Assembly (NCBI GenBank): GCA_028277765.1
Contig: JANQFQ010000051.1
Coordinates: 115,849-179,848 of the forward strand
Direction: 5' to 3'
Length of the DNA: 64,000 nt
Source: Desulfobacterales bacterium
GTDB taxonomy: Bacteria; Desulfobacterota; Desulfobacteria; Desulfobacterales; SURF-7
Part shown: positions 20,718 through 33,419 of the stretch, one piece after another
Layout of the letters: each line of letters begins with the position of its first letter
Position numbering within the stretch: position 1 is the first letter of the stretch
The notes under the pieces: generated by a model
What the model was told of the DNA's origin: nothing
Seen by the model: the letters and a program-made list of their open reading frames with translations, nothing else
The model's database searches: none
Program-made: the position numbers and the translations under genes

Positions 20718-20750
20718 TTGCCCATTATAACCTGCTTCTCCTTTCATTCT

Positions 20751-20931: not shown

Positions 20932-20960
20932 ATTTTCATTTCACTTAATCCTATCAATTT

Positions 20961-21037
20961 TAATGGCCTGCCATCCGTAGCTCGTTGCTATTGAGCCCTT
21001 AGCCCTCCTTCTTCGTCGCTTTACTCCGAGCGAAGGA
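20961..21037. repeat. TASR repeat copy c (middle hairpin deleted)
   Basis: atggcctgccatccgtagctcgttgc...ccctccttcttcgtcgctttactccgagcgaaggatgg. Confidence 0.6.
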
Positions 21038-21115
21038 TGGTGAGTGTGGAGGGACTCGAACCCTCAACTTACAGATTAAAAGCCTGTTACGCTGATCCAG
21101 TTGCGTCACACACTC
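21038..21115 (-). tRNA. tRNA-Lys (TTT)
   Basis: Loop cuUUUaa, acceptor GAGUGUG/CACACUC, CCA encoded. Confidence 0.7.
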
Positions 21116-21148
21116 ACATGTTAAACATCCTTTCCTCTATTTGTTTTC

Positions 21149-21224
21149 TGGTAGCGGCGGCCGGATTTGAACCGGCGCTGCACTGGATATGAACCAGTTG
21201 CTCTGCCTATTGAGCTACGCCGCA
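21149..21224 (-). tRNA. tRNA-Met/Ile2 type (CAT) with U1.U72 terminal mismatch
   Basis: Loop uuCAUau, T-arm GCCGG-TTCAAAT-CCGGC. The 1-72 mismatch is initiator-like but the anticodon stem lacks the three G-C pairs. Confidence 0.6.
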
Positions 21225-21231
21225 ACAAAAT

Positions 21232-21306
21232 TGGTAGCGATACCTGGAATCGAACCAGGGTTGCTCGATTATCGGTCGAGTGTTCTGCCTGCTGAACTAT
21301 ATCGCC
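21232..21306 (-). tRNA. tRNA-Ile (GAT), unusual C33
   Basis: Loop ccGAUaa, acceptor GGCGAUA/UAUCGCU, CCA encoded. Confidence 0.65.
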
Positions 21307-21319
21307 CCGATTTATATTC

Positions 21320-21398
21320 TGGCACCCCCGGGAAGATTCGAACTCCCGCAAACCCGGCTTCGAAGGCCGGCGCTCTGGATCCGCTGAGCTACGGGGGC
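21320..21398 (-). tRNA. tRNA-Arg (TCG)
   Basis: Loop cuUCGaa, acceptor GCCCCCG/CGGGGGU, CCA encoded. Confidence 0.6.
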
Positions 21399-21419
21399 AT
21401 ATGTCATCAAAACTTTCTT

Positions 21420-21493
21420 TAATTTCTTTGCCCTCCGTTGCTAAAGCTATGGAGGGCACCATCCTTCTCTGTCGCGCTGCTCCGAGCGAAGGA
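21420..21493. repeat. TASR repeat copy d (5' part missing)
   Basis: ..gccctccgttgctaaagctatggagggcaccatccttctctgtcgcgctgctccgagcgaaggatgg. Confidence 0.6.
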
Positions 21494-21569
21494 TGGTGGA
21501 CCCGGAAGGCATCGAACCTCCATAATACCGGTTATGAGCCGGCTGCTCTGCCGATTAAGCTACGGGTCC
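21494..21569 (-). tRNA. tRNA-Met (CAT), elongator-type
   Basis: Loop cuCAUaa, acceptor GGACCCG/CGGGUCC fully paired, CCA encoded. Confidence 0.7.
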
Positions 21570-21580
21570 AATTGCTTCTC

Positions 21581-21690
21581 ACGCCATATGGCCAGCCATC
21601 CGTAGCTCGTTGCCATTGAGCCCTTAGCCCTCCGCCGTTAAAGCTATGGAGGGCACCATCCTTCTCCGTCGTATTGCTCCGAGCGAAGGA
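21581..21690. repeat. TASR repeat copy e
   Basis: atggccagccatccgtagctcgttgccattgagcccttagccctccgccgttaaagctatggagggcaccatccttctccgtcgtattgctccgagcgaaggatgg. Confidence 0.65.
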
Positions 21691-21773
21691 TGGTGAGAGG
21701 GGGATTCGAACCCCCAAGGCTGTTACGCCCCACAGTTTAGCAGTCTGCTGCCATACCGTTCGGCCATCTCACC
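21691..21773 (-). tRNA. tRNA-Ser (GCT), class II, CCA not encoded
   Basis: Acceptor GGUGAGA/UCUCACC, loop cuGCUaa, long variable arm, T-arm GGGGG-TTCGAAT-CCCCC. Confidence 0.65.
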
Positions 21774-21821
21774 ATGTTTTCAATTTCGGTCTATGTATTA
21801 CCGTTTGCATTACCTCCTTTT

Positions 21822-21926
21822 TTATGGCCAGCCATCCGTAGCTCGGTGCATTTGATCCTTTTGCCCTCCGTCGCTAAAGCTATGGACGGCGCCATCCTTC
21901 TTCGTCGACTTACTCCGAGCGAAGGA
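21822..21926. repeat. TASR repeat copy f
   Basis: ttatggccagccatccgtagctcggtgc...gccctccgtcgctaaagctatggacggcgccatccttcttcgtcgacttactccgagcgaaggatgg. Confidence 0.65.
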
Positions 21927-22019
21927 TGGCGGAGGGACAGAGACTCGAACTCTGACGCGCCTTTTCAGGCGTTACTGGTTTTCAAGACCAGGCCCCGCCC
22001 CGCTGGGGTCAACCCCTCC
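21927..22019 (-). tRNA. tRNA-Ser (TGA), class II, 93 nt with irregular D-arm
   Basis: Anticodon arm CUGGU-cuUGAaa-ACCAG and T-arm CAGAG-TTCGAGT-CUCUG closely match enterobacterial tRNA-Ser(UGA). Long variable hairpin. TGA anticodon, not TCA, so not tRNA-Sec. Confidence 0.65.
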
Positions 22020-22550: not shown

Positions 22551-22640
22551 GTTCAACCAATTAAAAAGCCCCTTTCAGCATGCTGCCGAAAGGGGCTGTA
22601 AAATTCATGCTGAAATTTAGTATCAGTTCATGGGCCCCTC
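22551..22640. ncRNA. Candidate structured RNA motif, copy 2
   Basis: GCCCCTTTCAGCATGCTG..CCGAAAGGGGCTGTAAAATTCATGCTGAAATTTAGTATCAG aligns with copy 1 and keeps all three pairings. Confidence 0.4.
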
Positions 22641-22894
22641 CCGGCGTGATATTCTGACATATGCCAGATGAATACCGTTATAAAACGGATTCAAGAGGGT
22701 GGCTTCGGATAGGCTAAAATCCAAAAGCCTTTTAATTTGTTTTAAACATAGTAACCAAATCATTTTTAAATTCCTTAGTAATTTTTAACCTAATTATACA
22801 CTCTCTTTCGCGCGAAGTCAACAGCCGATTTTTATCATTCTTGATTTAAAATCTCCTGAGAAGCCTATAAAACCTGTATTTCTTTTACAAATAA

Positions 22895-23413
22895 TCATAA
22901 TGAAATTTTTAGGCCAAACTTTTCTTTTATTGTCAGCAACGCTTCTGCATTCCCTTTTGCATCATCTACAGGATAATGCGTATGTTTGGTTTTCCTTAGA
23001 TGTTTAAAATTCTTAAACATATCTTTTACAATACCTTTATATAAAGATCCTAAGTTCGTTGAACTAAATCCAAAGGGATTCTTTCCTGTAAAATGATGAA
23101 AATACCAGTTAATAAATTGCCAATCAAAACCATTGTTATCAGAGATAAACATTGGCTGGCTTTTAGAGTGCGTTTTAATCCAGCTAGCAAAATTCATCAT
23201 GACCTCTTTTGGTTCATCAAACGCCAGTACTTCCTCCCGGCTAAAGCCACTCACTGCCAGTGCTTCAGGAATCCAGTTTTCTGAAATCGGCCGCATTTGC
23301 CCGTAAAAAGTTTTTTCAAGGCCCGGTTTTACGATAACCGCCCCAAAGCTGATCATCGAATAATCGTCAGGTATGGGACCATCAGATTCTATATCTACCA
23401 TTATATAACTCAT
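22895..23413 (-). CDS. DEDDh-family 3'-5' exonuclease (DnaQ/RNase T-like), single domain
   Basis: Exo I MVDIESDG, Exo II FISDNNGFDW, Exo III HxxxxD as HTHYPVDDA; 172 aa. Confidence 0.75.
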   Translation of the reverse strand: MSYIMVDIESDGPIPDDYSMISFGAVIVKPGLEKTFYGQMRPISENWIPEALAVSGFSREEVLAFDEPKEVMMNFASWIKTHSKSQPMFISDNNGFDWQFINWYFHHFTGKNPFGFSSTNLGSLYKGIVKDMFKNFKHLRKTKHTHYPVDDAKGNAEALLTIKEKFGLKISL

Positions 23414-23427
23414 TTATAACCTCCAGA

Positions 23428-23511
23428 GGAGATGGTGGGCACAGCCCACCCTACAAATCAACCGATCTATAGCTTTAACAAAACGTAGGGCGGGCTGTGC
23501 CCACCATCTCC
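23428..23511. repeat. Long perfect palindrome R1, copy 1 (27-bp arms GGAGATGGTGGGCACAGCCCACCCTAC, ~30-nt loop)
   Basis: Intercistronic between the exonuclease and HEAT genes. Second copy at 28213-28293. Confidence 0.7.
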
Positions 23512-23512: not shown

Positions 23513-25165
23513 TTAAACCTTTTCCAGGTTAAATCTTATGCTTTTCACAATCCAGTCATCAATATATTTCCCAAATTTCAACAATGCATTTTCTATTCGC
23601 TTTTTCTGGTCCTGAGTCGGTTTTGTAAAGCTTCTATTAAACCCTGGCGGCCATTTTTCCAAATACATTACGGCTCTTTCTTTTACTATTGCATCAGCTG
23701 ATACAGCACCTTCAATCAAATAAGAAACACTGTCCCATTTTGAAAGATGCCTGATCACAAAAAGAATATTAAGCTTACTGTACTGTTTGTCAGTATTCTT
23801 AAATGCTCTCCAAAGCTCATCTGCATCATATATGTATTTTAACGTACTTAAAATCATTGCTGCTTCCCGTGAAATACCCGGGGTGTCTTCAACGATTTTT
23901 CGGGAAAAAAGCTCCGCATATTCTTTGGGGCTTAATTTGCCCACAGCACGAATCGCGGCTTTTCTAATTTTCGCAAGTCGATGTGTAACAGCACCAACAA
24001 TTAAATCCGCATCATCACTTTTGCCTGTTTCACCTAAACCGCAAATAGCCCCCTGCAGTTTTTCTTTTTTTTCCTGTTTAATGAATTTGCGATAAATTTC
24101 AGCAAAATCTATTTCTTTCTTTTTGGCCAGATAAAATCTGGCAAACTCCCTGATCGATTTATGAGAATCGAGCAGGGAGTCATACAGTTTATCTTCTGCC
24201 TGATCAGGAAACCTTTCAATTATGACCGATAATGCCTCTCTGCGCACAGGCATAAAGCTGTTTGAGAGCATTTTTTTAAGGCACTTTGAAATATAAATTT
24301 CATCATAAAGCGCTCTAATTTTTCGAGCACATTTTATCCTGATAACACAATCATGATCTGCCAGCCCAATGTCCAGGGCTTCATTTTCTATACCTGTATT
24401 AACATTAAGAACCAATTGAAAACAGCTCCTCCTTGCTTTCAGGTCGATTAAAAACAAGCCGTTTTTCAAAGCATCATATGAATGCTCACTGGTTAATAAA
24501 GCGGTTATTTTTTCAACCGTCTCTTTATGATCATGTCGCCTGCAGTCTAAAAGACTGTTGATAATAGCCATGTTTGACACAAAATGTTCTATATAATCCT
24601 CGTCAATTCGGCTCTTAATGCTCCTTAAAGCTATTTTATGAATTTCCCTCACCCAGTCATTTAACCTGATGAGAATAAACGGCAATTCCTTTCCAGATTT
24701 TATTTTTCTAAGTTTCTTTAGTGCTGATTCACGTATATATCCATTACTGTGAAATGTTGTTAATGCAAGAACGGCAAAAGATTCATCGTTTTTCCCTTTA
24801 AAATGCCCCACATCTGCAGGGACCAAATTCCATTGCCCATAACTGCTCATCGTGTAATACGGTGATCTTTCACGCACTTGCAAATCAAGCCAACCCAGCT
24901 CAGACACTGGAATCATTTTTAAAAGTGTTTCAAGGACACTTGATGCAGCTGTCGCAACATCCAGATGTTTTGAATATGCAAAAGGCAAAATATCCGGGAT
25001 TACCGCCGGTTCCATGCGAGAGCCGATTTGGATGATATGGTCGGCAATCCTGCTTGAATCTTCAAAAAGTTTATTAAGCTGTCCCCCAGAATCATATAAT
25101 TCATTTATCAAGCTCCTGGTCACTTCAGAAACTTTGCGTGAAAATGTATGGGTACTCTGTTTCAT
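23513..25165 (-). CDS. HEAT/armadillo-repeat protein
   Basis: Repeated amphipathic helix pairs (..VRREALSVIIE.., ..AKIRKAAIRAVGKL..) over 550 aa. All-alpha by composition. Confidence 0.55.
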   Translation of the reverse strand: MKQSTHTFSRKVSEVTRSLINELYDSGGQLNKLFEDSSRIADHIIQIGSRMEPAVIPDILPFAYSKHLDVATAASSVLETLLKMIPVSELGWLDLQVRERSPYYTMSSYGQWNLVPADVGHFKGKNDESFAVLALTTFHSNGYIRESALKKLRKIKSGKELPFILIRLNDWVREIHKIALRSIKSRIDEDYIEHFVSNMAIINSLLDCRRHDHKETVEKITALLTSEHSYDALKNGLFLIDLKARRSCFQLVLNVNTGIENEALDIGLADHDCVIRIKCARKIRALYDEIYISKCLKKMLSNSFMPVRREALSVIIERFPDQAEDKLYDSLLDSHKSIREFARFYLAKKKEIDFAEIYRKFIKQEKKEKLQGAICGLGETGKSDDADLIVGAVTHRLAKIRKAAIRAVGKLSPKEYAELFSRKIVEDTPGISREAAMILSTLKYIYDADELWRAFKNTDKQYSKLNILFVIRHLSKWDSVSYLIEGAVSADAIVKERAVMYLEKWPPGFNRSFTKPTQDQKKRIENALLKFGKYIDDWIVKSIRFNLEKV

Positions 25166-25179: not shown

Positions 25180-25250
25180 ATAAGTAGGTTAGGTTGAGCC
25201 GGTTTGCCCATGTTGGGTTAAAAACCGAAACCCAACCTACAAAAATTTAG
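25180..25250. repeat. R2 hairpin element, copy 1 (GTAGGTTG..GTTGGGTT-loop-AACCCAACCTAC)
   Basis: Second copy at 28362-28428; both intercistronic in the minus-strand operon. Confidence 0.55.
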
Positions 25251-25282: not shown

Positions 25283-27145
25283 TTAACAATGCTTAATCAA
25301 ATCAATAATCGTGGTTTTATCAAGCATCTCTGGTGACAAGTCAATGTGATCACCGTCAGGTTTTTCAGCAACCACGGTTGCCCCTGCTATACTCAACATT
25401 TCTCTAAAATCTAGAGAATTCACCATACTGCCAACCAAATATTTTCTTGCATACTTTGATTGCTCGTTCTTTGCAGATGTAATGGAATTACCAATGCTGA
25501 CGTTTGCAAAGTACACCCGGTTCTCTCCATCAATATTTACGATCAATCCTAAGATGTTCTGCTTTTTAGTAATATTTATATTAGCACTCGCAATAAGATT
25601 GTTCACATCGATCATATAATTTTTTTTAAACTTATTTGGTTTTTCATGTGCAGCCATAATCTTGCACTCGACTTCATCACCTTTTTGGAAATTATAGTAA
25701 TTCACCATTAATATCCTTGCTTCCTGGTATCCCTTTTTGATGTAAAAAAGCTCAGATGCTCCTCGCGGTGCAGGCGCGTCCGTAATATCCCCGGAGAACA
25801 GAACACTTCGGTCATCTGACCGATAAGCCTCATCCCATCCTATCTTGCCGGATTCACCAATAACAGATAAGTCCAAATCTACCTGCTTATTGGTATTTGT
25901 CCAATGAATACCCACAATCAAATCTTCCGGCACTGAGATATAACTGCCTGTTGGGAGATTTCCGGTAAACTGCTTTTCCGTTGCTGGTAAAGCATAATAA
26001 ACGTTTGATGGAATATAAAACGTCTTTTGATTAACATTCTTCTGGATATCACCGACTATTGAAGTAACAACTATATCCAGCGCTTCCCGGGTCGTTTCAT
26101 TAAGGCATTCATGCCACTCAAATTCTGTTGCCCAGCCGCGGCCGTTTCGAATTTTGTAAACAATTGATCCTTCAGGTTGAAGACGATGCTTGAGGGCATA
26201 TGCCAGGCGAATTTTCCGAAAGATACTTGCTTTTTCAATCCTTTCTCCTAATTCATCCAAATTTAATGTTCCGTATTTTATTTGAGACGTTATGCTGTTC
26301 AAATAATCTTCCGGTAATGGAACGTGTAATTTGTCTGCTTTTTTCCGTAATTGATTAAAAAATGTCTTATTTTGCGAAATAGACTTCATGGCTAAAAATA
26401 ATGGTTTAAACCGAAAGAAAATAGAAGCCAGATCGTCTGGCGCATCTTTAATCAACATATCCAGGAATTTTCCATTTGCTTCCTTTATCTTCTCGATCAA
26501 ATAATCACTTTTTATAATTAATGATTCGTCTGTCAGCTTGCTAATCAAATGACGCAAAAACTCAACCGGATCAGAAGGCACAAGGCCATAAAGGTCATAA
26601 AGCAATGCCTTCAGCTCTCGATTGCCTATCTCATGGGCAAAATCACTGTCATAGTTATTGGCTTTTACAATGGTCATAATATCGTCCAATGTTTCTTGCG
26701 CAAGAGCGATTCCTGACCCTAAGTTTATAATTCTGTCAAGGATCTCCTGTGCATCCATCGCCTTAATAATAATTAACGGGACGCTGTCTTTAATAACAGG
26801 CAGTTCCAAAACCTCACTTGGAATATAAACCGCATCTTCCCGATAAATACCAAGCTCCTTGTATCCATACGTGGTTATGTAATGAATGATTTGCTGAATC
26901 ACTAAAGATTCCATTGAAGCATTCTGGACGACTTCCCAGGACTTATGAAAGGCAGCATTTGCTTTTTCACCGGAAATACCTACAACACTTTCAATAACAT
27001 CCAGCAAATCATTATTCGGCCATATGGCTTCATCAAGCAGATAACCGTTTTTAATTGTCCGCTCAAGAACAGACTGAGGTATATTTTTTTTGTTTTTGTT
27101 CTTAACTTGAATAGCATTAAACAATCTCAATGTTGCAGTTTTCAT
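25283..27145 (-). CDS. Large hypothetical protein (620 aa; N-terminal alpha-helical ~350 aa, C-terminal beta-rich domain)
   Basis: Long ORF with AAGGAGA 9 nt upstream of the ATG. No motif I can name; no MIDAS/vWA motif and no TROVE hallmark seen by eye. Confidence 0.6.
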   Translation of the reverse strand: MKTATLRLFNAIQVKNKNKKNIPQSVLERTIKNGYLLDEAIWPNNDLLDVIESVVGISGEKANAAFHKSWEVVQNASMESLVIQQIIHYITTYGYKELGIYREDAVYIPSEVLELPVIKDSVPLIIIKAMDAQEILDRIINLGSGIALAQETLDDIMTIVKANNYDSDFAHEIGNRELKALLYDLYGLVPSDPVEFLRHLISKLTDESLIIKSDYLIEKIKEANGKFLDMLIKDAPDDLASIFFRFKPLFLAMKSISQNKTFFNQLRKKADKLHVPLPEDYLNSITSQIKYGTLNLDELGERIEKASIFRKIRLAYALKHRLQPEGSIVYKIRNGRGWATEFEWHECLNETTREALDIVVTSIVGDIQKNVNQKTFYIPSNVYYALPATEKQFTGNLPTGSYISVPEDLIVGIHWTNTNKQVDLDLSVIGESGKIGWDEAYRSDDRSVLFSGDITDAPAPRGASELFYIKKGYQEARILMVNYYNFQKGDEVECKIMAAHEKPNKFKKNYMIDVNNLIASANINITKKQNILGLIVNIDGENRVYFANVSIGNSITSAKNEQSKYARKYLVGSMVNSLDFREMLSIAGATVVAEKPDGDHIDLSPEMLDKTTIIDLIKHC

Positions 27146-27163
27146 CGTAATCTCCTTTTAAAT

Positions 27164-27217
27164 GGGGCGAGAGGTAATTTAACTTATCGAGTTTTTTTTA
27201 AGGAACCTCTTGTGCCC
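27164..27217 (-). ncRNA. Hairpin module C (GGGC-ACA-AGAGG-U .. A-CCUCU-C-GCCC with A-rich loop)
   Basis: Same architecture as modules at 27345 and 28306, with compensatory base changes (GGGAG/CUCCU versus AGAGG/CCUCU). Confidence 0.55.
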
Positions 27218-27227
27218 TTCAATATGT

Positions 27228-27340
27228 CGGGGAAGGCAGGAATCGAACCTGCGACCGCCGGGTCCAAGATTTCAGGAACCCCCTGTGCCATAAAGCGGAG
27301 AGTAAAAAATCCCGGTGCTCTACCGCTGAGCTACTTCCCC
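27228..27340 (-). ncRNA. tRNA-like RNA (Y-RNA / YrlA-like tRNA mimic): intact acceptor, D-arm and T-arm, anticodon loop replaced by a 48-nt insertion
   Basis: GGGGAAG-UA-GCUC-AGCGGUAGA-GCAC-C-CCGGG-[48 nt incl. GGCACAGGGGGUUCC]-CCCGG-CGGUC-GCAGG-UUCGAUU-CCUGC-CUUCCCC. No CCA encoded. Sits in the rtcB operon flanked by hairpin modules. Confidence 0.6.
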
Positions 27341-27344
27341 ATAT

Positions 27345-27390
27345 GGGCGAGGAGTATTTTTCAAGGGTTTTTTAAGGAACTCCCTGTGCC
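27345..27390 (-). ncRNA. Hairpin module A (GGGC-ACA-GGGAG-U .. A-CUCCU-C-GCCC)
   Basis: Immediately 5' of the tRNA-like element in RNA sense; near-identical copy at 28306-28352. Confidence 0.55.
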
Positions 27391-27424
27391 CAAATGTTTC
27401 ATCTTTTTACAAATTAATATATTA

Positions 27425-27802
27425 TTAATATTTATTTGTTTTTAAAAATTTTTCTGCCTTTTTGACAAACAAATTACATCTTTTGGTTTTTTTCGCCACA
27501 TTAATAAATTTAGTGTATTTCTCTTCTGCTTTATTAAACCGCCCTGCTGTTTCATGGGATAAAGCTTCCCAAAAAATAGCCTCGTAAAGCATGGGAGATA
27601 ATTTCCATGCTTTTCGACTTGCGAAAATTGCCCTATCAATATCCCCTTCATTAAACCGGTTAAAATATTGAATCGTAGCATCAGCCACAGCAAGCAAAAC
27701 AAGCGGATCATCCTGATCCTTTTTATACTTTTCTAAAATTTCATCCATTTGCGCTTTTATCACTTCTCTGTTTTCGTCTACAGGATACACACCGAATTGC
27801 AC
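27425..27802 (-). CDS. Hypothetical protein (125 aa)
   Basis: ORF only; weak. Confidence 0.3.
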
Positions 27803-28184
27803 TGGAATGAAAATTAAATTTCAAGGTTTCATACCAGTATTTCTGCTCTTTGGCAGAAAAAACAAATAATTGGTTGCACTGAACACATTCCCTTTCAATA
27901 TCAACATAAAAATATTTTGGTGTATGGCACATATGGCAGAACATCTGCTCTCGAATATTGCCAGCCACCGCATTTTTAGGAAGTTTCGGTTTATAATCCG
28001 GATCATAACCCCATGTTTTATTTTTTTTGCCATTGAAACCAATGGTTGTTTTTTCAATCATTGGAATCTCACCAAATAATGGATGAGAAACAAATCGTCT
28101 ATTGTCAGCCAAAGATTTCTTATACTTTCTTTTCTTTAACTTCTTCTTTTCTTTCTTTGAATATGCTGATCGTCGAACACGCAT
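27741..28184 (-). CDS. Basic zinc-ribbon protein (CHMCH..CVQC..CVSC), 147 aa
   Basis: Lys/Arg-rich N-terminus, three Cys pairs; ORF only. Confidence 0.4.
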
Positions 28185-28212
28185 TTTATTCTAATCCTTA
28201 ACCGTTCAAAGG

Positions 28213-28293
28213 ATATGGTGGGCACAGCCCACCCTACAAATCAATCGATCTGTAGCTTTGATAAACCGTAGGGTGGGCTGTGCCCACCATCTC
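28213..28293. repeat. Long perfect palindrome R1, copy 2
   Basis: ATGGTGGGCACAGCCCACCCTAC ... GTAGGGTGGGCTGTGCCCACCAT. Confidence 0.7.
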
Positions 28294-28305
28294 ACTTCCC
28301 AATAT

Positions 28306-28352
28306 GGGCGAGGAGTAATTTTCAAGGTTTTTTAAAGGAACTCCCTGTGCCC
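28306..28352 (-). ncRNA. Hairpin module A' (third copy)
   Basis: gggcgaggagtaattttcaaggttttttaaaggaactccctgtgccc on the + strand, about 125 bp upstream (RNA sense) of the rtcB start region. Confidence 0.55.
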
Positions 28353-28361
28353 AATTATTCA

Positions 28362-28428
28362 GCTTTAAGTAGGTTGCCTGCTTGCCCATGTTGGGTTGAA
28401 AACCGTAACCCAACCTACAAATTAGCGT
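28362..28428. repeat. R2 hairpin element, copy 2
   Basis: taggttgcctgcttgcccatgttgggttgaaaaccgtaacccaacctacaa. Confidence 0.55.
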
Positions 28429-28477
28429 TTGTAAAACAAGATGGGATAAAGGCGAAACCCAACACTTTTGGATTATA

Positions 28478-29683
28478 TCAACCTTTTACCACCCCTAACG
28501 GTCTCAGTTTAACAAGCGGCTTAATCAGATCCAGTTCTGCTTCAATGACCGCGTCAATATCTTTATACGCCTGTGGTGCTTCGCTGAGATCGACCATCCC
28601 TTTTGTTTTACCTCTTTTTACTTTGCTCCACCGGTCATACACGATCCCTTCCATGGCCTTGTCGCATTCTTCAGGCGTTAATGCCCGTGTTGCCTGCATC
28701 CTTCCCATGACACGGCCTGCGCCGTGAGAACAGGACATAAAGGATTCAATGTTTCCGAGCCCTTTCACAATATATGACGATGTCCCCATGGAACCTGGAA
28801 TAATCCCGGTTTCATCCTGTTTGGCTGATGTAGCGCCTTTTCTGTGGACCCAGACATTTTTGCCAAAATGATTTTCCAGAGCAGCATAATTATGGTGTAT
28901 ATTCACCTGGTTTCCAAATTCAGCATCCTTATAAACTGATGTAAAAGCGTCTATAAATCTGTCCATAATTCGCTGCCTGTTCTCTCTTGCATATGCAAGG
29001 GCGAAATTCATATCTTTGATATAATCCTGGCCCTCCTGTGTGTTTACCGGTAAAAACGCTAGGTCCTTGTTCGGGATATTCGAATGGAACTTCCGGTTTA
29101 ACTCAAGGGCACGGTCATTATAAAACCTTGCAATCATATTGCCCAGGTGTCTTGACCCGGAATGGATCATCAGCCACACATGGTTATCATCACCTGCCTG
29201 GATTTCAATAAAATGATTGCCGCCACCCAGGGTTCCCAGATTTCTGCAGGCAAGATCCCTTACATGGGCAGAAAACCATTTTCTGTCACTATATGAATCA
29301 ATATCGTCTTCAAACCCTTCCCATGTCTGTTCTTTTTTATGTGCCTTGCCTTCGCCGCATGGAACCGTTTTCTTAATCATGTTGACAACTTCCCTGAGCT
29401 GTTCTCTGGTGGTATTTTCAACTTCGATACTTGTCCTCACAGCCCCCATCCCACAGCCGATATCCACACCAACAGCATTTGGAATCACCGTATTTGTGCA
29501 GGCAATCACACCGCCAATCGGCATCCCATACCCCTGATGACAGTCCGGCATCAGCGCCACATGGCGAAACACAGCCGGGTGCTGTGCTAAATCCGCAGCC
29601 TGATCCATTGCCCCATCTTCAATATCTTTACACCATGATTTGACCGGTACTCTAAAATTATCTTCCTGTTTTATCCATTCCAT
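28478..29683 (-). CDS. rtcB: RNA-splicing ligase RtcB (3'-phosphate/5'-OH RNA ligase)
   Basis: GTLGGGNHFIEIQ, HSGSRHLG and other RtcB blocks; 401 aa. Confidence 0.9.
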   Translation of the reverse strand: MEWIKQEDNFRVPVKSWCKDIEDGAMDQAADLAQHPAVFRHVALMPDCHQGYGMPIGGVIACTNTVIPNAVGVDIGCGMGAVRTSIEVENTTREQLREVVNMIKKTVPCGEGKAHKKEQTWEGFEDDIDSYSDRKWFSAHVRDLACRNLGTLGGGNHFIEIQAGDDNHVWLMIHSGSRHLGNMIARFYNDRALELNRKFHSNIPNKDLAFLPVNTQEGQDYIKDMNFALAYARENRQRIMDRFIDAFTSVYKDAEFGNQVNIHHNYAALENHFGKNVWVHRKGATSAKQDETGIIPGSMGTSSYIVKGLGNIESFMSCSHGAGRVMGRMQATRALTPEECDKAMEGIVYDRWSKVKRGKTKGMVDLSEAPQAYKDIDAVIEAELDLIKPLVKLRPLGVVKG

Positions 29684-29698
29684 AATAACACCTCTTTT

Positions 29699-30127
29699 TC
29701 ACTGCCATTGTTTTAACGCGAAATATGGTCCTAATCCAATGCTCTGCTCATGGGTAAAGGCCATAGTCCATTCCATATCTTCAGGAAAAACATAATAATC
29801 ACCAAAAGCTGATAGATCATGAAGCGTTTTAGAACAGCATTTGTATCCCAGGTTATCGTCTTTCTCAGAGAGTACATAATATTCTTTTGATGATACATTC
29901 TTATATAATTCAATAGCTCTTGCCCCAAGCTTGTGAATGGCGAAGTCGAAACTGAATGTATGCCAGTTATAATCGCCATAAATCCACTTTCCTTTTTTTT
30001 CCTTGATGATCTTTGAAAATGTTTCTCGCCATTTTTGCTGTAATTTCCAAGTTTCTTTTTTTGTAAGCTGGAAATATTGTATTGAATGTTCTTCAAAAAA
30101 TGTTTCTAGCATTTTCTTTAATTTCAA
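29699..30127 (-). CDS. Hypothetical protein (142 aa) inserted between rtcA and rtcB
   Basis: ORF with upstream spacing consistent with the operon. No recognisable domain. Confidence 0.45.
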   Translation of the reverse strand: MKLKKMLETFFEEHSIQYFQLTKKETWKLQQKWRETFSKIIKEKKGKWIYGDYNWHTFSFDFAIHKLGARAIELYKNVSSKEYYVLSEKDDNLGYKCCSKTLHDLSAFGDYYVFPEDMEWTMAFTHEQSIGLGPYFALKQWQ

Positions 30128-30338
30128 ATAATTGAATTTTTCACCTCTTAATATCTACAACCTGTTTTATCCTGTCAATTTTGTCTTTTTGCCATATTAA
30201 AAAAGACAGAATTTCATAAAGCACTTTCTTTAAAACCCGATCACGACCACGACCACCGCTCCGCTGATCACGACCACGAATTATAATGGCAGAGCGAAGC
30301 GATACATCAACTTTAGGCACTTATAACTTTAGTGCACT

Positions 30339-31358
30339 TTAGGCACTTTTTATGTCAATCTCCCACTCATTCTGCCCATATTCTTGCATATCAATGTCAA
30401 CATCCAGAAACTCTTTAATAATATCAATATTCGTCCTTGTATGTTTTGTCGGTGAAAGCGTTCTGAATTTACCTCCACCGGCCATGGCCATTGGAATCAG
30501 TAACTGATCCGCAAGATATCTGCCCACTGGCACATCATATGCCAGATATTCCCGTACAGATTTTGCTGTCCGGTTTGCCACCTTTTCCGCTGAAACGCCT
30601 CTTTCACCAAATCCCGTGAAAACCTCTGTAATATATTCACTTTCAATCTCTATTGTCAGAATATTCCCCGGGCCCTGAGAGTTTTCAACTTCAACCGTTC
30701 TTAATTCTTCCCTGTTCCATTCCAGCTTTTCCTTGATCACTTTAATCTCCCTGTGCGCGATCTTCACCGGCAGGTTTGCCACAACCGCGCTGGCGATTTT
30801 CCTGACAGTTTTTCCGCGATCCAGAAGATCAATACTATTAAGCTTTGTAGGATTAATCGTCACCTTAAATCTGCCTCCGCCTGCTGGATAAAAGCCCGGC
30901 TTTTCAAGCACAGCATCAACCCTTGGCCCCATCCGCTTAATCACCGGCAGAAAAGCTTTTTCAAGAAAGTCAAAAGGCGGAGCATATGGATTATGCGTTC
31001 CCCCTTCCAGAACAATCTCTGAAGGACCATCTGCAACTATTAGCGCCGGTAAAATAGTTTGAAAAACCAGGGTGCAGCTTCCGGCAGAGCCGATGGCAAA
31101 ATGATAATTGCCCGGTTTGATGGTTTCAGGCTCAAATGTAAACGCCTGTGAACCGATCCGGTTTCCCTGGATAGCAGCCTTGCCGATCTCTGCCGCGGCA
31201 TTTACCGCAGTAAGATGCTGACGCATCAGTCCCGGCTTTTTTCGCCCAGCCCGGATATTGCTTATTGTAAACGGCTTTCCTGTTACCAACGAAAGCGCAA
31301 GGGACGTTCTTAGAATCTGACCGCCGCCTTCACCATATGAACCGTCAATTAAAATCAT
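30339..31358 (-). CDS. rtcA: RNA 3'-terminal phosphate cyclase RtcA
   Basis: MILIDGSYGEGGGQILRTSLALSLVTGKPF..RQHLTAV N-terminal signature; 339 aa. Confidence 0.9.
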   Translation of the reverse strand: MILIDGSYGEGGGQILRTSLALSLVTGKPFTISNIRAGRKKPGLMRQHLTAVNAAAEIGKAAIQGNRIGSQAFTFEPETIKPGNYHFAIGSAGSCTLVFQTILPALIVADGPSEIVLEGGTHNPYAPPFDFLEKAFLPVIKRMGPRVDAVLEKPGFYPAGGGRFKVTINPTKLNSIDLLDRGKTVRKIASAVVANLPVKIAHREIKVIKEKLEWNREELRTVEVENSQGPGNILTIEIESEYITEVFTGFGERGVSAEKVANRTAKSVREYLAYDVPVGRYLADQLLIPMAMAGGGKFRTLSPTKHTRTNIDIIKEFLDVDIDMQEYGQNEWEIDIKSA

Positions 31359-31447
31359 TAGTATTTCCTTTTTAAAATTTGTTCAGATACAGAAACGATT
31401 ATGATGGGATGCTCCACCTTTTAGCAGAACATCCCATCAGTTAAAGG

Positions 31448-32554
31448 TTATAATAAATTAACAACCCTGTCAGCAAGTCCCTTTTCACCCAGCACAACAT
31501 TGAGCTTTGAATTTCCTGCAACTTTCTCAAGAACATCCAGCTCTCGCAGGCGCATAAGTGTTGGGTTGTTGTCCAGGAGTTTAGCTGTATTGGCCTGGCT
31601 ACGCATAGCAGCTGTCTCTTCTCTACGCGTAATCAGGTTGGCATCTGCTGCTTTCTGGGCCTCGATGACTTTATTCATGAGGTCCTTCATATCTCCTGGC
31701 AGAATCACGTCCCTGATACCAAGTGCCAGCACATCAATACCGAATTCAGCTACTCGCTCCTTTATCGTATCTTCCAGATCTTTTGCCACTCTCTCTTTGT
31801 CGCTCAGGAGTGTATCCAGATCAAATGTTCCAATAACAGCCCGTAACGCCAGCTGTGCTTCACGGTATACAGCGTTTTTGCTGTCATCCACAACAGACAC
31901 GGACTTAAGCGCGTCCACAACCTTGTAAGTAATCACGGCATTCATTCGCAGTGTCACCTTGTCAGAGGTCATGATCTCCTGGCCGGATACATCCATTACC
32001 GTCTCACGCATATCAACATGATAAAATTTTACTTTTCCCATATTTCTCCAGAACATGTACTGGCCTGGTCCGAAAGTATCTACATGTACACCGTCTTTAA
32101 AGTAAACACCTGCAAAACCCTGCTCAACATTAGAAATGTTCAGTGCATGTTCTACGCCACTGGATTTCGCGATGATGTTAAGGTCCTTGTGATTAAATCG
32201 CACATCTCTCGCATCCACAACTTCAACTTTTACATTGCGAAATTTTGTCCAAAGTGCGTATAAACCTGGATCCAGAACCATTTCAAACCGTCCGTCAATC
32301 CAGACCAGTCCCCGCTGGTGATCCTTAAGGTCAAGGACTTCCGCGTGACCTTTCAAAGCGCCTGACTTTACAATCATGTCAAGGTCTTCATGCATAAACC
32401 AGGCATCCCGCTGGGAAACAACGGCTACCTTGACATTGCATAAAGGATCGACGAACCAGTGACGCCCTTTTCCTAAAAGGCCTTTGAATTCACGATCCCG
32501 AAAGTATAATCCTTTTTCATAAGAACGAATTTTTTTAGTTTTGATTAAGAACAT
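31448..32554 (-). CDS. SPFH/band-7 (stomatin/flotillin-like) domain protein
   Basis: PHB-domain region plus C-terminal coiled-coil (..EAQKAADANLITRREETAAMRSQANTAKLL..); 368 aa. Confidence 0.75.
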   Translation of the reverse strand: MFLIKTKKIRSYEKGLYFRDREFKGLLGKGRHWFVDPLCNVKVAVVSQRDAWFMHEDLDMIVKSGALKGHAEVLDLKDHQRGLVWIDGRFEMVLDPGLYALWTKFRNVKVEVVDARDVRFNHKDLNIIAKSSGVEHALNISNVEQGFAGVYFKDGVHVDTFGPGQYMFWRNMGKVKFYHVDMRETVMDVSGQEIMTSDKVTLRMNAVITYKVVDALKSVSVVDDSKNAVYREAQLALRAVIGTFDLDTLLSDKERVAKDLEDTIKERVAEFGIDVLALGIRDVILPGDMKDLMNKVIEAQKAADANLITRREETAAMRSQANTAKLLDNNPTLMRLRELDVLEKVAGNSKLNVVLGEKGLADRVVNLL

Positions 32555-32837
32555 TTTCCTCTCCTTTCCCCTGAATTACTTTTCGGGACACTGTTATTAA
32601 TACGCCGGGTGAAATAAACCGTTGGGAAGTAAGCTGAAACCCTTCCACACTTAACATGCGGAGCACTATTTGAGCTTCCTGGTCCTTCAGGCTGTCTGGC
32701 ATTTTATCTAAACAATTGCAAAACCCTTCTAGCCTGGGTTTAGTAAACAGAATTGATATCATGCCTCTAACCTGAAATCCCATGTGAAGCGGTATCCACG
32801 CGCTGCATGGCATGTTGCCAAGTGCTGTCTTTTCCAA
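32535..32837 (-). CDS. Doubtful small ORF upstream of the SPFH gene (TTG start; could be NfeD-like or non-coding)
   Basis: ORF-track start is TTG; first ATG is at codon 9. No SD. Position is analogous to NfeD partners of SPFH genes. Confidence 0.2.
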   Translation of the reverse strand: MEKTALGNMPCSAWIPLHMGFQVRGMISILFTKPRLEGFCNCLDKMPDSLKDQEAQIVLRMLSVEGFQLTSQRFISPGVLITVSRKVIQGKGEENVLNQN

Positions 32838-33011
32838 ACATCAGCTTTTGCCGCCGCCTGATGACGTCCATCATACTGACTGGATATGTTTTCAGGCCAT
32901 CCGGTCCCGGCTGCGTGTCCGGATAAAACCGGCTGGATAACCGCTCACTCCCCTCGGGCCTTTTTAGGAGATCGTTTTCAGCGATCTAAGAGGGTTTTCA
33001 TCCCTTTGGCT

Positions 33012-33085
33012 TGGAGCAGGAATCGAACCTGCAACGCCCGTGTTATAAGCACGGTGCTCTACCAATTGAGCTATCCTCTTCTGAT
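33012..33085 (-). ncRNA. tRNA-like leader RNA: canonical D-arm, anticodon arm (loop cuUAUaa) and T-arm, but the 3' acceptor strand is interrupted by a ~22-nt insertion
   Basis: AAGAGGA-UA-GCUC-AAUUGGUAGA-GCAC-CGUGC-uuauaac-ACGGG-CGUU-GCAGG-UUCGAUU-CCUGC-UCC[aagccaaagggaugaaaaccc]UCUU. Lies between the sigma54 promoter and the first operon ORF. Confidence 0.55.
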
Positions 33086-33201
33086 ATCTGACCATCATTG
33101 ATCCCATGTTCGGTACACACAGCATTGACCGCATTGCTGAATGAAGTGCGCCGCTGGCCCGGCGGATATCAGTTTGTTAAAGAACAATTGCCGTGTAATA
33201 G

Positions 33202-33216
33202 AGCAATGGATGTGCC
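33202..33216 (-). promoter_or_regulatory. Sigma54 (RpoN) -24/-12 promoter, TGGCAC-N5-TTGC, reading into the rtc operon
   Basis: + strand gcaatggatgtgcca; reverse complement is TGGCACATCCATTGC, a perfect GG-N10-GC consensus. Divergent from rtcR, as in E. coli rtcBA. Confidence 0.75.
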
Positions 33217-33383
33217 ATCCATGACAAAAAGTGTGCGATTGCTATTTAATGGTTTGATTTTATATAAAATATTTTTTTTGACATGCGGATTTGTCTCTTG
33301 ACCTGGAAAAAGATTTTGGCTATAATTTTATAAAATATTATAAATTTATAGAAAATATTATATCAAAATGGTATAGGTTTCAT

Positions 33384-33419
33384 TTGAATAACAAACGACA
33401 CTATTCAACTCAGCTTTAT
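33384..33419 (+). promoter_or_regulatory. Palindrome TTGAATAAC-N7-ACTATTCAA plus CTCAGCTTTAT abutting the rtcR ATG (copy 2)
   Basis: Same 35-bp sequence as 18921-18955 (one arm mismatch). Confidence 0.5.

Follow-up and report, generated by a model that had tools for sequence, protein, structure and literature searches.

Three bulged hairpins and a tRNA-like RNA, encoded at one locus on the minus strand of the window (the whole stretch of DNA that was analyzed, 64,000 nucleotides or 64 kb), are best read as copies of a single structured noncoding RNA module, the core of which would be specifically bound by the 620-amino acid protein (P620) encoded next to it to form a ribonucleoprotein. We assign this reading as a whole, in which the binding, the processing and the physiological role are predicted, a probability of about 60%. 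The tRNA-like RNA and the hairpins apparently belong to a widespread family of structured RNAs that has not been described before; no prior description of the core was found in the literature searched. The features of the window are as follows.

17408-22019, minus strand: tRNA array (27 genes, all 20 amino acids represented), on the strand of the operon and downstream of it (ARAGORN and Rfam); an HNH-type ORF lies inside it
22567-22597: strong terminator between the tRNA array and the operon (terminator scan)
23424-23510 and 28207-28293: MITE-like palindromes
25283-27145, minus strand: P620, 620 aa, with a helical N-terminal part and a TerD-like beta-sandwich (approximately residues 375-550)
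27164-27217, minus strand: hairpin module C, P2 AGAGGU/ACCUCU (R1 covariance model, 55.2 bits at 27159-27223; MFE fold)
27228-27340, minus strand: tRNA-like RNA (topology b) with an open acceptor stem, D-arm, 5-bp anticodon stem, T-arm and discriminator G
27263-27310, minus strand: 48-nt insert of the tRNA-like RNA, the module core in circularly permuted form (direct reading)
27345-27391, minus strand: hairpin module B, 4 nt upstream of the 5' end of the tRNA-like RNA (R1, 57.8 bits at 27339-27397; MFE fold)
28294-28305, minus strand: remnant after module A, consisting of the linker AUAU and the first bases of the tRNA-like 5' end (UGGGAAGU)
28306-28352, minus strand: hairpin module A (R1, 59.7 bits at 28300-28358; MFE fold)
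28478-33217, minus strand: RtcR/sigma-54 operon, upstream of the RNA locus on the same strand (Pfam)
28478-29683, minus strand: RtcB, 1.1 kb upstream of the tRNA-like RNA (Pfam)
29699-30127, minus strand: DUF4275 protein (Pfam)
30339-31358, minus strand: RtcA (Pfam)
31448-32554, minus strand: Band7/SPFH protein (Pfam)
33013-33076, minus strand: second tRNA-like element (Rfam tRNA, 52.3 bits)
33203-33217, minus strand: promoter TGGCAC-N5-TTGC, the lone perfect match in the 64 kb
33291-35021, plus strand: rtcR, divergent from the operon

In module A, helix P1 (GGGC/GCCC) is separated by a 3x1 internal loop (ACA/C) from helix P2 (GGGAGU/ACUCCU), which is accompanied by the invariant UCCU and a variable loop. 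The R1 model, built from relatives and run with filters off, finds exactly three such modules in the window at 55-60 bits, the next match having 13 bits, and MFE folds give all of them the bulged two-helix shape (z -2.5 to -3.4). The sequence GGGCACAGGGAGTTCC, allowing three or fewer mismatches, occurs four times in the 64 kb, always on the minus strand and always at this locus, compared with an expectation of 0.22 occurrences and with 0 of 100 shuffles. A direct repeat (D3) relates 28294-28359 to 27333-27398 with 91% identity, and the remnant at its end was cut off by the inserted MITE-like palindrome at 28207-28293. A first-pass annotation of this DNA had proposed that bulged, covarying hairpins flank the tRNA-like RNA, which the three R1 matches and the covariation among relatives bear out; the compensatory difference that it pointed to (GGGAG/CUCCU versus AGAGG/CCUCU) is real and is a small sample of the massive covariation among the relatives. 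Its coordinates needed minor changes, as the hairpin placed at 27345-27390 exists but module B starts at 27391, and the third copy at 28306-28352 is indeed module A, with the remnant coming after it.

The Rfam tRNA model aligns end to end with 27228-27340 of the minus strand (60.3 bits), and the insertion falls in the anticodon loop. By direct reading, the acceptor stem is GGGGAAG/CUUCCCC, the D-arm GCUC-AGCGGUA-GAGC and the T-arm GCAGG-UUCGAUU-CCUGC, the strands of the anticodon stem CCGGG/CCCGG are exactly 48 nt apart, and no CCA is encoded after the RNA. This confirms the near-canonical tRNA frame that had been noticed earlier, in which 48 nt replace the anticodon loop and CCA is not encoded. 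The insert had, however, been taken for a half-copy of the hairpin, and this was wrong: it contains the complete core, permuted (UAC-UCUC-C-GC, loop UUUAUG, GC-ACA-GGGG-GUUCCU). A U-rich linker leads into UAC and UCUC (27303-27298 with the A-U pair), the bulged C (27297) and GC (27296-27295); after the loop come GC (27288-27287), ACA (27286-27284), GGGGGU (27283-27278), UCCU (27277-27274) and an 11-nt linker. The P2' helix of the insert is 94.8% paired with double changes at four of six pairs, in an alignment that was not selected for P2' pairing.

The R2 model gives the tRNA-like RNA of the window 114 bits and the 27 ordinary tRNAs of the window 56 bits at most. Among 32 orthologues, in an alignment that was partly fitted or selected, the acceptor, D, anticodon and T helices all covary, and U8, A14, the GG of the D-loop and the T-loop GUUC.A..C are invariant. 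A CCA follows the discriminator in the gammaproteobacterial copies and is absent from the others, which parallels the habits of the host tRNA genes.

The core is found far beyond the window. The 133 loci that were fetched (1.75 Mb from diverse bacterial phyla, archaea and phage contigs) contain 251 copies; by the R1 model, the cellular loci (871 kb) account for 68 of these and the viral loci (877 kb) for 183. Covariance-model matches were used for the enrichment of the core near the gene because a loose regular expression was too permissive. The consensus is ...GGC-[AnA]-NNNNGU-UCCU...U-ACN'N'N'N'-[C]-GCC..., and the conserved 5' strand in 218 aligned copies reads (G)GC-A-n-A followed by NNNNGUUCCU. 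In these copies, UUCCU is invariant (218/218), and conservation is 97-100% at C-A-n-A, UUCCU, U-A-C and the bulged C; that these positions are nearly invariant although unpaired is typical of a surface that contacts a protein or a ligand. The P2 helix displays a purine/pyrimidine strand bias. We dropped the idea of a guide RNA, as the variable loops either are A/U-rich or form simple hairpins and a target search with the loop of the window found nothing; readings of the core as a K-turn, T-loop, bulge-helix-bulge or anti-Shine-Dalgarno element are not supported by its sequence.

The helices of the core are maintained by compensatory changes. In 34 cellular modules, 92% of the positions are paired and 11 of 13 pairs have double changes; the covariation score is 0.58, compared with 0.18 in shuffles (0/500) and 0.12-0.24 in slid controls. 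The 134 distinct viral modules, which were absent from model building and whose alignment was partly fitted or selected, are also 92% paired, with double changes at 12 of 13 pairs and a score of 0.66 versus 0.23. The regular expression behind alignment A2 demanded four P2 pairs and two P1 pairs, and among the P1 extension pairs, which selection never required, two positions are 100% paired.

Every one of the 251 core copies in the fetched loci is on the strand of the P620 gene and within approximately 1.7 kb of it. P620 is the sole gene that co-occurs with the core in all of the loci, and an all-against-all BLAST of the flanking ORFs from the cellular and viral loci gave no conserved protein neighbours of P620. 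The suggestion made earlier, that the 620-aa protein is the partner of the RNA, is the best-supported reading, with the binding itself predicted. The element, which the earlier annotation had seen inside an rtcB operon, travels with P620 and not with rtcB, as most P620 loci have no rtc genes.

Most modules are directly upstream of P620, with at least one module there in 107 of 118 loci, and the median gap between the last module and the ORF is 20 nt. In the window, this gap (from module C to the start codon) is 19 nt, and the module abuts the AAGGAG ribosome-binding site. This position would equally fit a purely cis-acting 5' leader, in which the modules serve as operators or as riboswitch-like control of P620 translation or termination and there is no trans-acting RNA or particle. 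Likewise, sigma-70-like promoters are directly before the first module in Firmicute loci, and several loci have an attenuator-like U-run after P1. However, the modules are downstream of the gene in 12 loci, exclusively so in four, and tandem arrays reach seven modules (L073), with diverged units and covarying P2 helices, although many loci have a single module. In addition, the permuted forms described below are self-contained RNAs after the gene with the core at their termini, and in one-third of the loci, the core is housed in a tRNA that obeys the rules of tRNA genes at its acceptor end, linker and CCA, which implies excision from the transcript. We prefer a ribonucleoprotein and consider a leader alone to be unlikely.

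P620 itself is widespread but patchily distributed across phyla; its homologues fall into about 1,500 clusters at 50% identity and occur on hundreds of phage contigs, with 178 matches in IMG/VR. The structural model is confident and is of a two-part protein (pLDDT 90.6, pTM 0.88), and its predicted structure has the beta-sandwich fold of TerD. This TerD-like fold is the only identifiable one, as we found no family match in Pfam, NCBIfam, PDB, PHROGs or PADLOC and no recognizable RNA-binding or catalytic domain or nuclease fold. Its homologues have many invariant arginine, lysine and aromatic residues, e.g., in HKSW (67-70), HYxTTYG (88-94) and RFKPLF (245-250). The protein and the RNA probably form an RNA-protein particle that resembles, yet is distinct from, the Ro/Y-RNA particle, with binding predicted from the evidence given above.

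One could instead imagine a conflict system similar to type III toxin-antitoxins, in which the RNA repeats neutralize a harmful P620 or serve phage-host conflict as a sponge or decoy, and depletion or damage of the RNA frees the activity. Tandem RNA units immediately before a single co-oriented gene are the layout of ToxIN-type systems, the pair is abundant on phage contigs and patchy across phyla as indicated above, and other conflict-type genes are nearby, e.g., one for a DEDDh 'effector' exonuclease. However, the known toxins are small endoribonucleases with near-identical repeats, whereas P620 has 620 residues with no nuclease fold or PADLOC match, the modules are diverged and covarying and many loci have only one of them. 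Furthermore, the identity of P620 across phyla (60-77%) is unusually high, unlike that of fast-evolving conflict genes. Such a system seems to us an improbable explanation of the pair.

The core occurs in three settings. The stand-alone form, with no tRNA part, is the commonest and is the one found in tandem arrays. The second, a core inside the anticodon arm of a tRNA as in the window, is represented by 38 copies (23 cellular and 15 viral) with 64-119 bits, compared with 56 bits or less for real tRNAs. In the third, the core is at the 5' and 3' termini of a permuted YrlA-like tRNA mimic consisting of a T-arm, a closed acceptor stem and a D-arm; this form is present in Fibrobacter, a Woesearchaeote and phages, including Synechococcus phage S-CRM01 (loci L047, L049-51, L030, L064, L080/81, L128-131 and L133). 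In both fusions, the tRNA is attached on the P2/UCCU side of the core. However, in L059 and L043 the tRNA is joined via its acceptor stem, and some loops hold merely a T-arm-like hairpin, so that no one fixed three-dimensional arrangement of core and tRNA applies universally.

The permuted forms bear on the possibility that the window encodes a genuine Y RNA of the YrlA family, serving a Ro60/Rsr protein encoded elsewhere in the genome. A tRNA mimic and a bulged stem within an RtcR-controlled rtcBA operon would fit this idea, as would the sub-threshold YrlA matches of the permuted relatives and the loose resemblance of GGCAnA to GNCGAA (PMC4201824). However, YrlA (RF02553) and Y_RNA (RF00019) have no match in the window at 26900-28600 at E<=10, and the permuted relatives score 46.3 and 35.9 bits, below the gathering score of 69 and mostly via the generic tRNA-like part. 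The operon encodes no TROVE protein, the Pfam TROVE model has no match at E<=0.1 among 60 diverse P620 homologues, and the core co-occurs with P620 in 133 loci, most of them with no rtc genes. We therefore regard membership in YrlA as very improbable. The first-pass annotation had called the locus Y-RNA/YrlA-like, which is right for the architecture, given the permuted relatives, and wrong for the family; its appeal to the known Y-RNA/Rsr arrangement fails on the missing TROVE/Ro60 gene and YrlA or Y_RNA match and on the different stem sequence. Its remark that the RNA of the window is not permuted as in YrlA was correct, since the acceptor stem is open.

Another explanation starts from the tRNA: ARAGORN in intron mode calls the RNA of the window a tRNA-Lys(ttt) with a 41-nt intron, which would be cut by an endonuclease and sealed by the RtcB of the operon, encoded 1.1 kb upstream and known as a tRNA-splicing ligase in archaea and animals. 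Yet for the 32 orthologues, whose tRNA bodies are nearly identical, the same program gives approximately 20 anticodons and intron positions from 30 to 39; there is no conserved anticodon, and so the lysine call is an artefact, and the case for something other than an ordinary intron-containing tRNA survives. The linker from the anticodon stem to UAC is 1-9 nt, in several orthologues too short for half an anticodon loop, and the conserved part is the 'intron' and not the anticodon loop. The insert folds as the module core with opposed 3-nt and 1-nt bulges and not as a 3-4-3 bulge-helix-bulge (direct reading and MFE fold), and no intron family in Rfam, including group I, matches the RNA of the window at E<=10. 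Moreover, the closed acceptor stem of the permuted relatives makes charging impossible, the tRNA array of the window already has a tRNA-Lys(UUU) and most loci have no RtcB. It is hard to believe that the RNA is an ordinary spliced tRNA.

A dispersed REP- or MITE-like repeat sitting here by chance, which several copies within 1.2 kb and the true MITE-like palindromes of the region might suggest and which had been raised earlier as a possible objection, can be dismissed, as the 64 kb contain just three modules, which share a locus and a strand, each of the 251 copies in the 1.75 Mb of fetched loci adjoins P620 on its strand and compensatory changes keep the RNA structure.

Returning to the ribonucleoprotein, we predict that P620 binds a core consisting of the inner part of P1, the 3x1 loop A-n-A/C, the 6-bp purine/pyrimidine-biased P2 and the junction GU-UCCU...U-AC. 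The locus would be transcribed as a single precursor, in the window together with the RtcR/sigma-54 RNA-repair operon, of which it would be the distal part. The tRNA body, which is fused to the core through the anticodon stem, may have two roles. Firstly, it would make the RNA a substrate of the host tRNA-maturation enzymes; after cleavage by RNase P 4 nt downstream of module B, 3' trimming and CCA addition would release stable, discrete RNAs. Secondly, it could be a tRNA-shaped handle, with an intact D/T-loop elbow and no anticodon, via which P620 would be recruited to, or compete for, factors that recognize tRNA. The last module, approximately 20 nt before the start codon, is probably also an operator for feedback control of P620 translation.

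The neighbourhoods of P620 would suggest tRNA and RNA damage and translational stress as the setting, because of the linkage to Rtc repair genes in some bacteria and the embedding in the tRNA arrays of many phages. An rtc-type gene is within 10 kb in about 10 of 53 cellular P620 loci, and rtc genes are near P620 in the window, L011, L012, L018, L027, L036 and L047-51. As for the phages, tRNA genes are within 5 kb of P620 in 32 of 80 viral loci, with five or more of them in 16 loci, and all 258 tRNAs near viral P620 genes are on the strand of the gene; in S-CRM01, g174 is within the phage tRNA array and is accompanied by five or six modules. Since most P620 loci have neither rtc nor tRNA genes nearby, this setting is extrapolated from a minority. 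We also offer, tentatively and as a proposal that may well turn out to be wrong, the idea that P620 and its RNAs are a self-contained ribonucleoprotein of phages, bacteria and archaea that arose independently of Ro60/Y RNA, captured tRNA bodies repeatedly in at least three connectivities and acts on the tRNA economy, e.g., as an uncleavable decoy or tether that protects or manages tRNA pools during attack by anticodon nucleases or other attacks directed at translation. Such a role would explain both its placement inside phage tRNA arrays and, in some bacteria, its inclusion in RtcR-controlled RNA-repair operons that adjoin spare tRNAs.

If P620 binds the core, the two would be a new and widespread RNA-protein particle, built on a protein that has remained unannotated in every library tested despite its approximately 1,500 clusters. 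That phages embed the pair in their tRNA arrays, and that an RtcR operon next to a complete spare set of tRNAs contains it, would connect it with the question of how phage and host fight over tRNA integrity, which can be addressed in cultured systems, such as Synechococcus phage S-CRM01, Marinicella meishanensis and Geminocystis. The natural circular permutations of the same RNA are a ready structure-function series.

Several known systems resemble this one in part. The 27-tRNA array of the window, with an HNH-type ORF inside and rtcB nearby, matches the described neighbourhood of L-arrays, and P620 and its RNAs are embedded in the tRNA arrays of many phages; the L-array work does not describe the core RNA or P620. 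In Anabaena, all4315 is co-regulated with the tRNA array described in PMC8421152. The window uses RtcR/sigma-54, unlike cyanobacteria, from which that system is reportedly absent (PMC10272220). Type III toxin-antitoxin systems (ToxIN, CptIN and TenpIN) also have tandem short structured RNAs upstream of one co-oriented gene, whose product is expected to bind them, and are frequent on mobile elements and phages. However, P620 is three times larger than their toxins and is not a ToxN/AbiQ-type endoribonuclease, and the repeats here are diverged, are single in many loci and are in some cases fused to tRNA mimics.

In YrlA, Rsr binds the motif GNCGAAN0-1G, which is located close to the 5' end in the stem where the two ends of the RNA pair (PMC4201824), whereas the conserved stem here is GGC-AnA-...GUUCCU / UAC...-C-GCC. 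In the unpermuted RNA of the window, the termini form an open acceptor stem and not the bulged core stem. As with YrlA, a bulged two-helix stem is combined with a tRNA mimic (D- and T-arms and an acceptor-like stem) that has no anticodon loop, and some of the relatives share the whole topology of termini in the stem, T-arm, closed acceptor and D-arm; however, tandem stand-alone cores with no tRNA part are the commonest form here. The RNA is encoded beside the gene of a large helical-repeat protein, as in Ro60/Y-RNA systems, sometimes in RtcR-controlled rtcBA operons and in phages too, but P620 has a helical domain and a TerD-like sandwich and no detectable TROVE or vWA domain. To our knowledge, the design of a protein-binding stem plus a tRNA mimic was known until now from YrlA/Ro60 only, and the pair would be a second, independent case of it.

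The fusion of core and tRNA also has a counterpart in the laboratory. In the engineered 'tRNA scaffold' of Ponchon and Dardel (2007), a foreign RNA replaces the anticodon loop, and the cell is said to process and stabilize the product like a tRNA. Here as well, the cargo RNA is at the end of the anticodon stem of a tRNA body whose D/T elbow and acceptor end are intact; however, this fusion is natural, is conserved among different phyla and in phages and has permuted versions. It would appear that nature already employs this trick of RNA engineers.

The tRNA-like frame described by the first-pass annotation, which carries 48 nt in place of the anticodon loop, is matched over its full length by the Rfam tRNA model (27228-27340, 60.3 bits), with a long insertion at the position of that loop. 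ARAGORN in its default mode does not call it. The RNA stands between two copies of a bulged two-helix hairpin (the module, or core), ahead of the gene for a 620-residue protein, P620.

28306-28352, minus strand: module A, the third module, found by motif and by covariance model R1
27391-27345, minus strand: module B, followed by the linker AUAU
27340-27228, minus strand: tRNA-like RNA, 113 nt, followed by a 10-nt spacer
27217-27164, minus strand: module C, followed by a ribosome-binding site and the P620 start codon
27145-25283, minus strand: P620 ORF, 620 aa, 3' of module C

The flanking modules read GGGC-ACA-GGGA-GUUCCU...UAC-UCCU-C-GCCC, and the 48 nt between CCGGG and CCCGG in the tRNA-like RNA read AUUUUU-UAC-UCUC-C-GC-UUUAUG-GC-ACA-GGGG-GUUCCU-GAAAUCUUGGA. 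In the insert a hexaloop closes the GC/GC end, and the GUUCCU/UAC end opens into the anticodon stem. This insert had been taken for a half-copy of the hairpin; however, both module halves are present in the opposite order, and so it is a circular permutation of the hairpin. The third copy reported at 28306-28352 was recovered by an unfiltered covariance-model scan of the window, which gave exactly three stand-alone modules (55-60 bits; next best 13 bits). The motif occurs four times in the 64 kb, always at the P620 locus and on the same strand, and thermodynamic folding of the window modules gives the same bulged two-helix shape. Module A plus the next 12 nt is 91% identical to module B plus the 5' start of the tRNA-like RNA, and this duplicated copy is then broken off by an 87-nt palindromic MITE-like element (28207-28293), a second copy of which is at 23424-23510. 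Another MITE-like repeat family is present at 25198-25243 and 28376-28421; the pairs in both families are 91% identical.

Close homologues of P620 (60-77% identity) number more than 1,700 and come from widely separated phyla; at 50% identity a library of 1.8 billion representatives has 1,567 clusters of it, each about 600-660 residues long and free of fusions. We fetched 52 cellular loci (Cyanobacteria, Chloroflexota, Desulfobacterota, Gammaproteobacteria, Planctomycetota, Bacteroidota, Fibrobacterota, Firmicutes, Woese- and Promethearchaeota) and 80 viral contigs from 178 IMG/VR matches; these loci carry L-numbers below. By direct reading, the same hairpin is near-universal in the 400 nt upstream of the fetched P620 genes. 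R1, the model of the stand-alone module, was built from 34 cellular modules and had 68 matches in the cellular loci (871 kb) and 183 in the viral loci (877 kb). Every one of these 251 copies shares the strand of its P620 gene and lies no more than about 1.7 kb away. A locus has 1-7 modules, most of them directly upstream of P620, with a median gap of 20 nt between the end of the last module and the ORF; 12 loci have modules just 3' of the gene, four of them exclusively so. The first-pass annotation had allowed that the hairpins might be a genome-wide REP family, but such a dispersed repeat was rejected, as the copies are not scattered and those in the window are confined to the locus. No other conserved neighbour of P620, cellular or viral, emerged from an all-against-all comparison of flanking ORFs. 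Genes of the rtc type occur within 10 kb in about 10 of 53 cellular loci, the window counted (the window, L011, L012, L018, L027, L036 and Fibrobacter loci), which is far above chance and yet a minority. The travelling companion of the element is P620, not the rtc genes.

The proposal that the hairpins are a conserved, covarying RNA structure holds in both samples. The cellular seed alignment has 92% of its cells paired, 11 of 13 pairs changed on both sides, and a covariation of 0.58 versus 0.18 for shuffles (0 of 500 reach the observed value) and 0.12-0.24 for slid partners. The regular expression behind it demanded four pairs of helix P2 and the two innermost pairs of helix P1, so the outer P1 pairs were unselected; at two of these positions 34 of 34 sequences are paired, with up to 17 double changes. 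The 134 distinct viral modules, an independent check although they were found by the model and hence are fitted to it, are 92% paired, with double changes in 12 of 13 pairs and a covariation of 0.66 versus 0.23. The most conserved positions are unpaired ones, i.e., C-A-n-A, the bulged C and following G, U-A-C and above all UUCCU (97-100% invariant in 218 copies), and the apical region, A/U-rich or with an additional hairpin, is constrained neither in length nor in sequence. Judged from sequence, invariant bulge and junction nucleotides on freely covarying helices look like a sequence-specific protein-binding site or a ligand pocket. P2, although its sequence covaries, retains a strand bias, with purines on the 5' side and pyrimidines on the 3' side (module alignments A3 and A4, all loci). 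Several P2 copies are AGGAGGU, a perfect Shine-Dalgarno-like sequence.

The core displays several connectivities, and the stand-alone hairpin, form (a), is the commonest. Form (b), with the core inside a tRNA as in the window, has 32 non-redundant examples that align well, and all of its helices covary (95.4% paired, 20 of 29 pairs with double changes), including P2, which was not selected for pairing here. U8, A14, the D-loop GG and the T-loop are invariant in the 32 examples, and therefore the tRNA elbow should form. R2, the covariance model of this form, separates such copies (64-119 bits; 23 in cellular and 15 in viral loci) from ordinary tRNAs, which score at most 56 bits. The acceptor stem GGGGAAG is conserved across phyla, which implies that the RNA travels together with P620 instead of being drawn from host tRNAs. 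CCA is encoded after the discriminator in gammaproteobacterial form (b) (L009-L011, L014, L018, L019) and is not encoded in that of the other hosts (the window, L001, L002, L007 and L013). This pattern mirrors the convention of the hosts' tRNA genes, though the tRNA body is common across phyla, and so it argues that the 3' end is matured like that of a tRNA. The order of the window (module, 3-5 nt, tRNA-like RNA, module, P620) is found again in Anaerolineae, Desulfobacterales and Kapaibacteria.

In form (c) the core is made of the 5' and 3' termini, and the 'loop' consists of a T-arm, a loop-closed acceptor helix (no two copies have the same sequence, yet the strands are complementary) and a D-arm. 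It is present in Fibrobacter, a Woesearchaeote and several phages, including the cultured Synechococcus phage S-CRM01 (L133). In both (b) and (c) the GUUCCU-linker leads to the 3' strand of the anticodon stem, and the 5' strand of that stem leads through a U-rich linker to UAC. Because the strands exit the core on the same side, the two forms are circular permutations of one design. Examples of form (c) and of other arrangements are:

L133 4624-4741: YrlA-like permuted tRNA mimic, one of the S-CRM01 modules
L059 4617-4746 and L043 9791-9911: form (d), an entire tRNA-like unit joined via its acceptor stem
L005 9783-9867, L075 886-974, L088 4886-4971 and L132 1916-2006: loop with only a T-arm-like hairpin (GGUUCGAnUCC)

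S-CRM01 (NC_015569 132,000-134,500) encodes its P620 homologue, the 'hypothetical protein' g174, in the middle of the phage tRNA array, with five or six modules before the gene, among them the YrlA-like mimic, and a further one behind it. The module array is overlapped on the opposite strand by an annotated ORF, g173c (L133 4797-4943), that is probably spurious. In the viral sample, 32 of the 80 loci have tRNA genes within 5 kb of P620, 16 have at least five, and all 258 tRNAs near the gene are on its strand. The combination in the window is also seen in a gammaproteobacterial MAG, L012, which has RtcA and Band7, an 18-tRNA array, the tRNA-fused RNA with a module, and P620 (326-2624, 3185-7549 and 9801-11866).

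In the window, the minus-strand genes are an RtcR/sigma-54 RNA-repair operon. From the promoter, the order is a second tRNA-like sequence, Band7/SPFH, RtcA, DUF4275, RtcB, module A, two small proteins (treble-clef zinc finger and TPR), module B, the tRNA-like RNA, module C and P620, with a HEAT-repeat protein and then an exonuclease 3' of P620.

33203-33217, minus strand: sigma-54 promoter TGGCAC-N5-TTGC, sole perfect match in the window, facing the divergent rtcR
33013-33076, minus strand: second tRNA-like sequence (Rfam tRNA 52.3 bits), in the operon leader ~125 nt 3' of the promoter
23513-25165, minus strand: 550-aa HEAT-repeat protein, weak PADLOC HEAT-ARM_XIII match
22895-23413, minus strand: DEDDh exonuclease, PADLOC 'Effector: Exonuclease' model, 6.7e-40
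22793-22821, minus strand: sigma-70-like promoter (11/12), between exonuclease gene and tRNA array
22567-22597, minus strand: strong terminator-like hairpin (14-bp stem and T-run), between exonuclease gene and tRNA array
17408-22019, minus strand: 27 tRNA genes for all 20 amino acids, on the operon strand past the terminator
about 20123-20629, minus strand: ORF with HNH-type motif inside the array, between tRNA-Asn and tRNA-Arg

RtcR is reported to sense damaged tRNA fragments, which makes it intriguing that its own operon has a tRNA-like leader. In its D- and T-arms the leader sequence is near-identical to the 27228-27340 RNA; its anticodon loop (CUUAUAA) has the normal 7 nt, its acceptor stem is only 3 bp long, and it lacks the GUUCCU core. 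A homologue of the HEAT-repeat protein is also 3' of P620 in Marinicella (L014 11973-13055), and homologues of the HNH-type ORF are in four viral P620 loci. With this terminator and promoter ahead of it, the tRNA array may be transcribed on its own, barring read-through of the terminator. The array resembles the cyanobacterial 'L-arrays', long tRNA arrays with rtcB and an HNH gene nearby that are induced by translational stress; that report mentions neither the element's RNA nor P620 (PMC8421152). Unlike them, it adjoins an RtcR/sigma-54 operon, and cyanobacteria are reported to be without RtcR/sigma-54 (PMC10272220), which argues against a cyanobacterial host for the window.

P620 is not covered by any Pfam, NCBIfam, PADLOC or PHROGs family; the one exception is a segment of an SCO0854-type protein in NCBIfam, matched weakly and locally. 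There is no consistent Pfam family among 60 homologues (down to 22% identity), and a profile search found no relatives among PDB sequences. The structure model was mediocre with a 16-sequence alignment (pLDDT 75.5) and reached pLDDT 90.6 and pTM 0.88 with 120 sequences. Its gross layout, a helical domain and a second globular domain, recalls that of Ro60, a resemblance at the level of layout. Alignments of homologues have many invariant Arg, Lys, His and aromatic residues, which would be compatible with RNA binding.

We predict, with a probability of roughly 60%, that the RNA is the partner of P620 and that together they form a particle, with the core as the P620 binding site. The loci themselves establish the structure, its conservation, the linkage and the topologies, from which binding, processing and function are inferred. 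Fusion to a tRNA would bring tRNA-type processing (an RNase P cut 4 nt after module B, 3' trimming and CCA addition), as well as stability and a tRNA-shaped handle without an anticodon. Presumably the physiological field is tRNA or RNA damage and translational stress. The anticodon-less tRNA-like domain of Salmonella YrlA has been suggested to be a competitive inhibitor of an anticodon nuclease (PMC7790460), and by analogy this idea would fit the window-type RNA. The promoter-distal module is beside the ribosome-binding site and may allow P620 to repress its own translation; that the element is purely a cis-acting leader seems rather unlikely to us. A toxin-antitoxin-like or decoy conflict system is less probable still: tandem RNA units ahead of a single gene are the layout of type III toxin-antitoxin loci, but P620 is large and very conserved and is not a ToxN-type nuclease. 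We give very little credence to an ordinary intron-containing tRNA with a clear anticodon, an outcome that the first-pass annotation had listed as counting against its own reading. ARAGORN with introns allowed does call tRNA-Lys(ttt) with a 41-nt intron, but over 32 orthologues it assigns about twenty anticodons (including stop, SeC, Phe(aaa) and His(atg)) at intron positions 30 to 39; the linker before the invariant UAC is down to 1-2 nt in some of them, and the conserved part is the insert, not the anticodon loop. A repeat element is equally improbable.

The remaining comparison is with YrlA, and here the earlier designation of the element as Y-RNA/YrlA-like stands for its architecture and falls for membership. 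Form (c) has the YrlA topology, but its scores with the Rfam YrlA model, 46.3 bits for a match limited to the tRNA-like part and 35.9 bits for a full-length match in S-CRM01, stay below the gathering score of 69, and even at E<=10 neither YrlA nor Y_RNA matches the window's RNAs. In place of the published Rsr-binding motif GNCGAAN0-1G (PMC4201824), the conserved strand has GGC-A-n-A...GUUCCU, and no TROVE/Ro60 protein is encoded in the window's operon. The element is thus YrlA-like in design without being a member, and a true YrlA is highly improbable. All 4,227 models of Rfam 15 returned nothing for the module beyond the generic tRNA part and the sub-threshold YrlA, and full-text literature searching, with the Burroughs and Aravind 2016 review outside its coverage, found no published description of the element or P620. 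We place it with the 'Y-RNA-like particle' kind; there is a fair chance that it arose independently and merits a category of its own.
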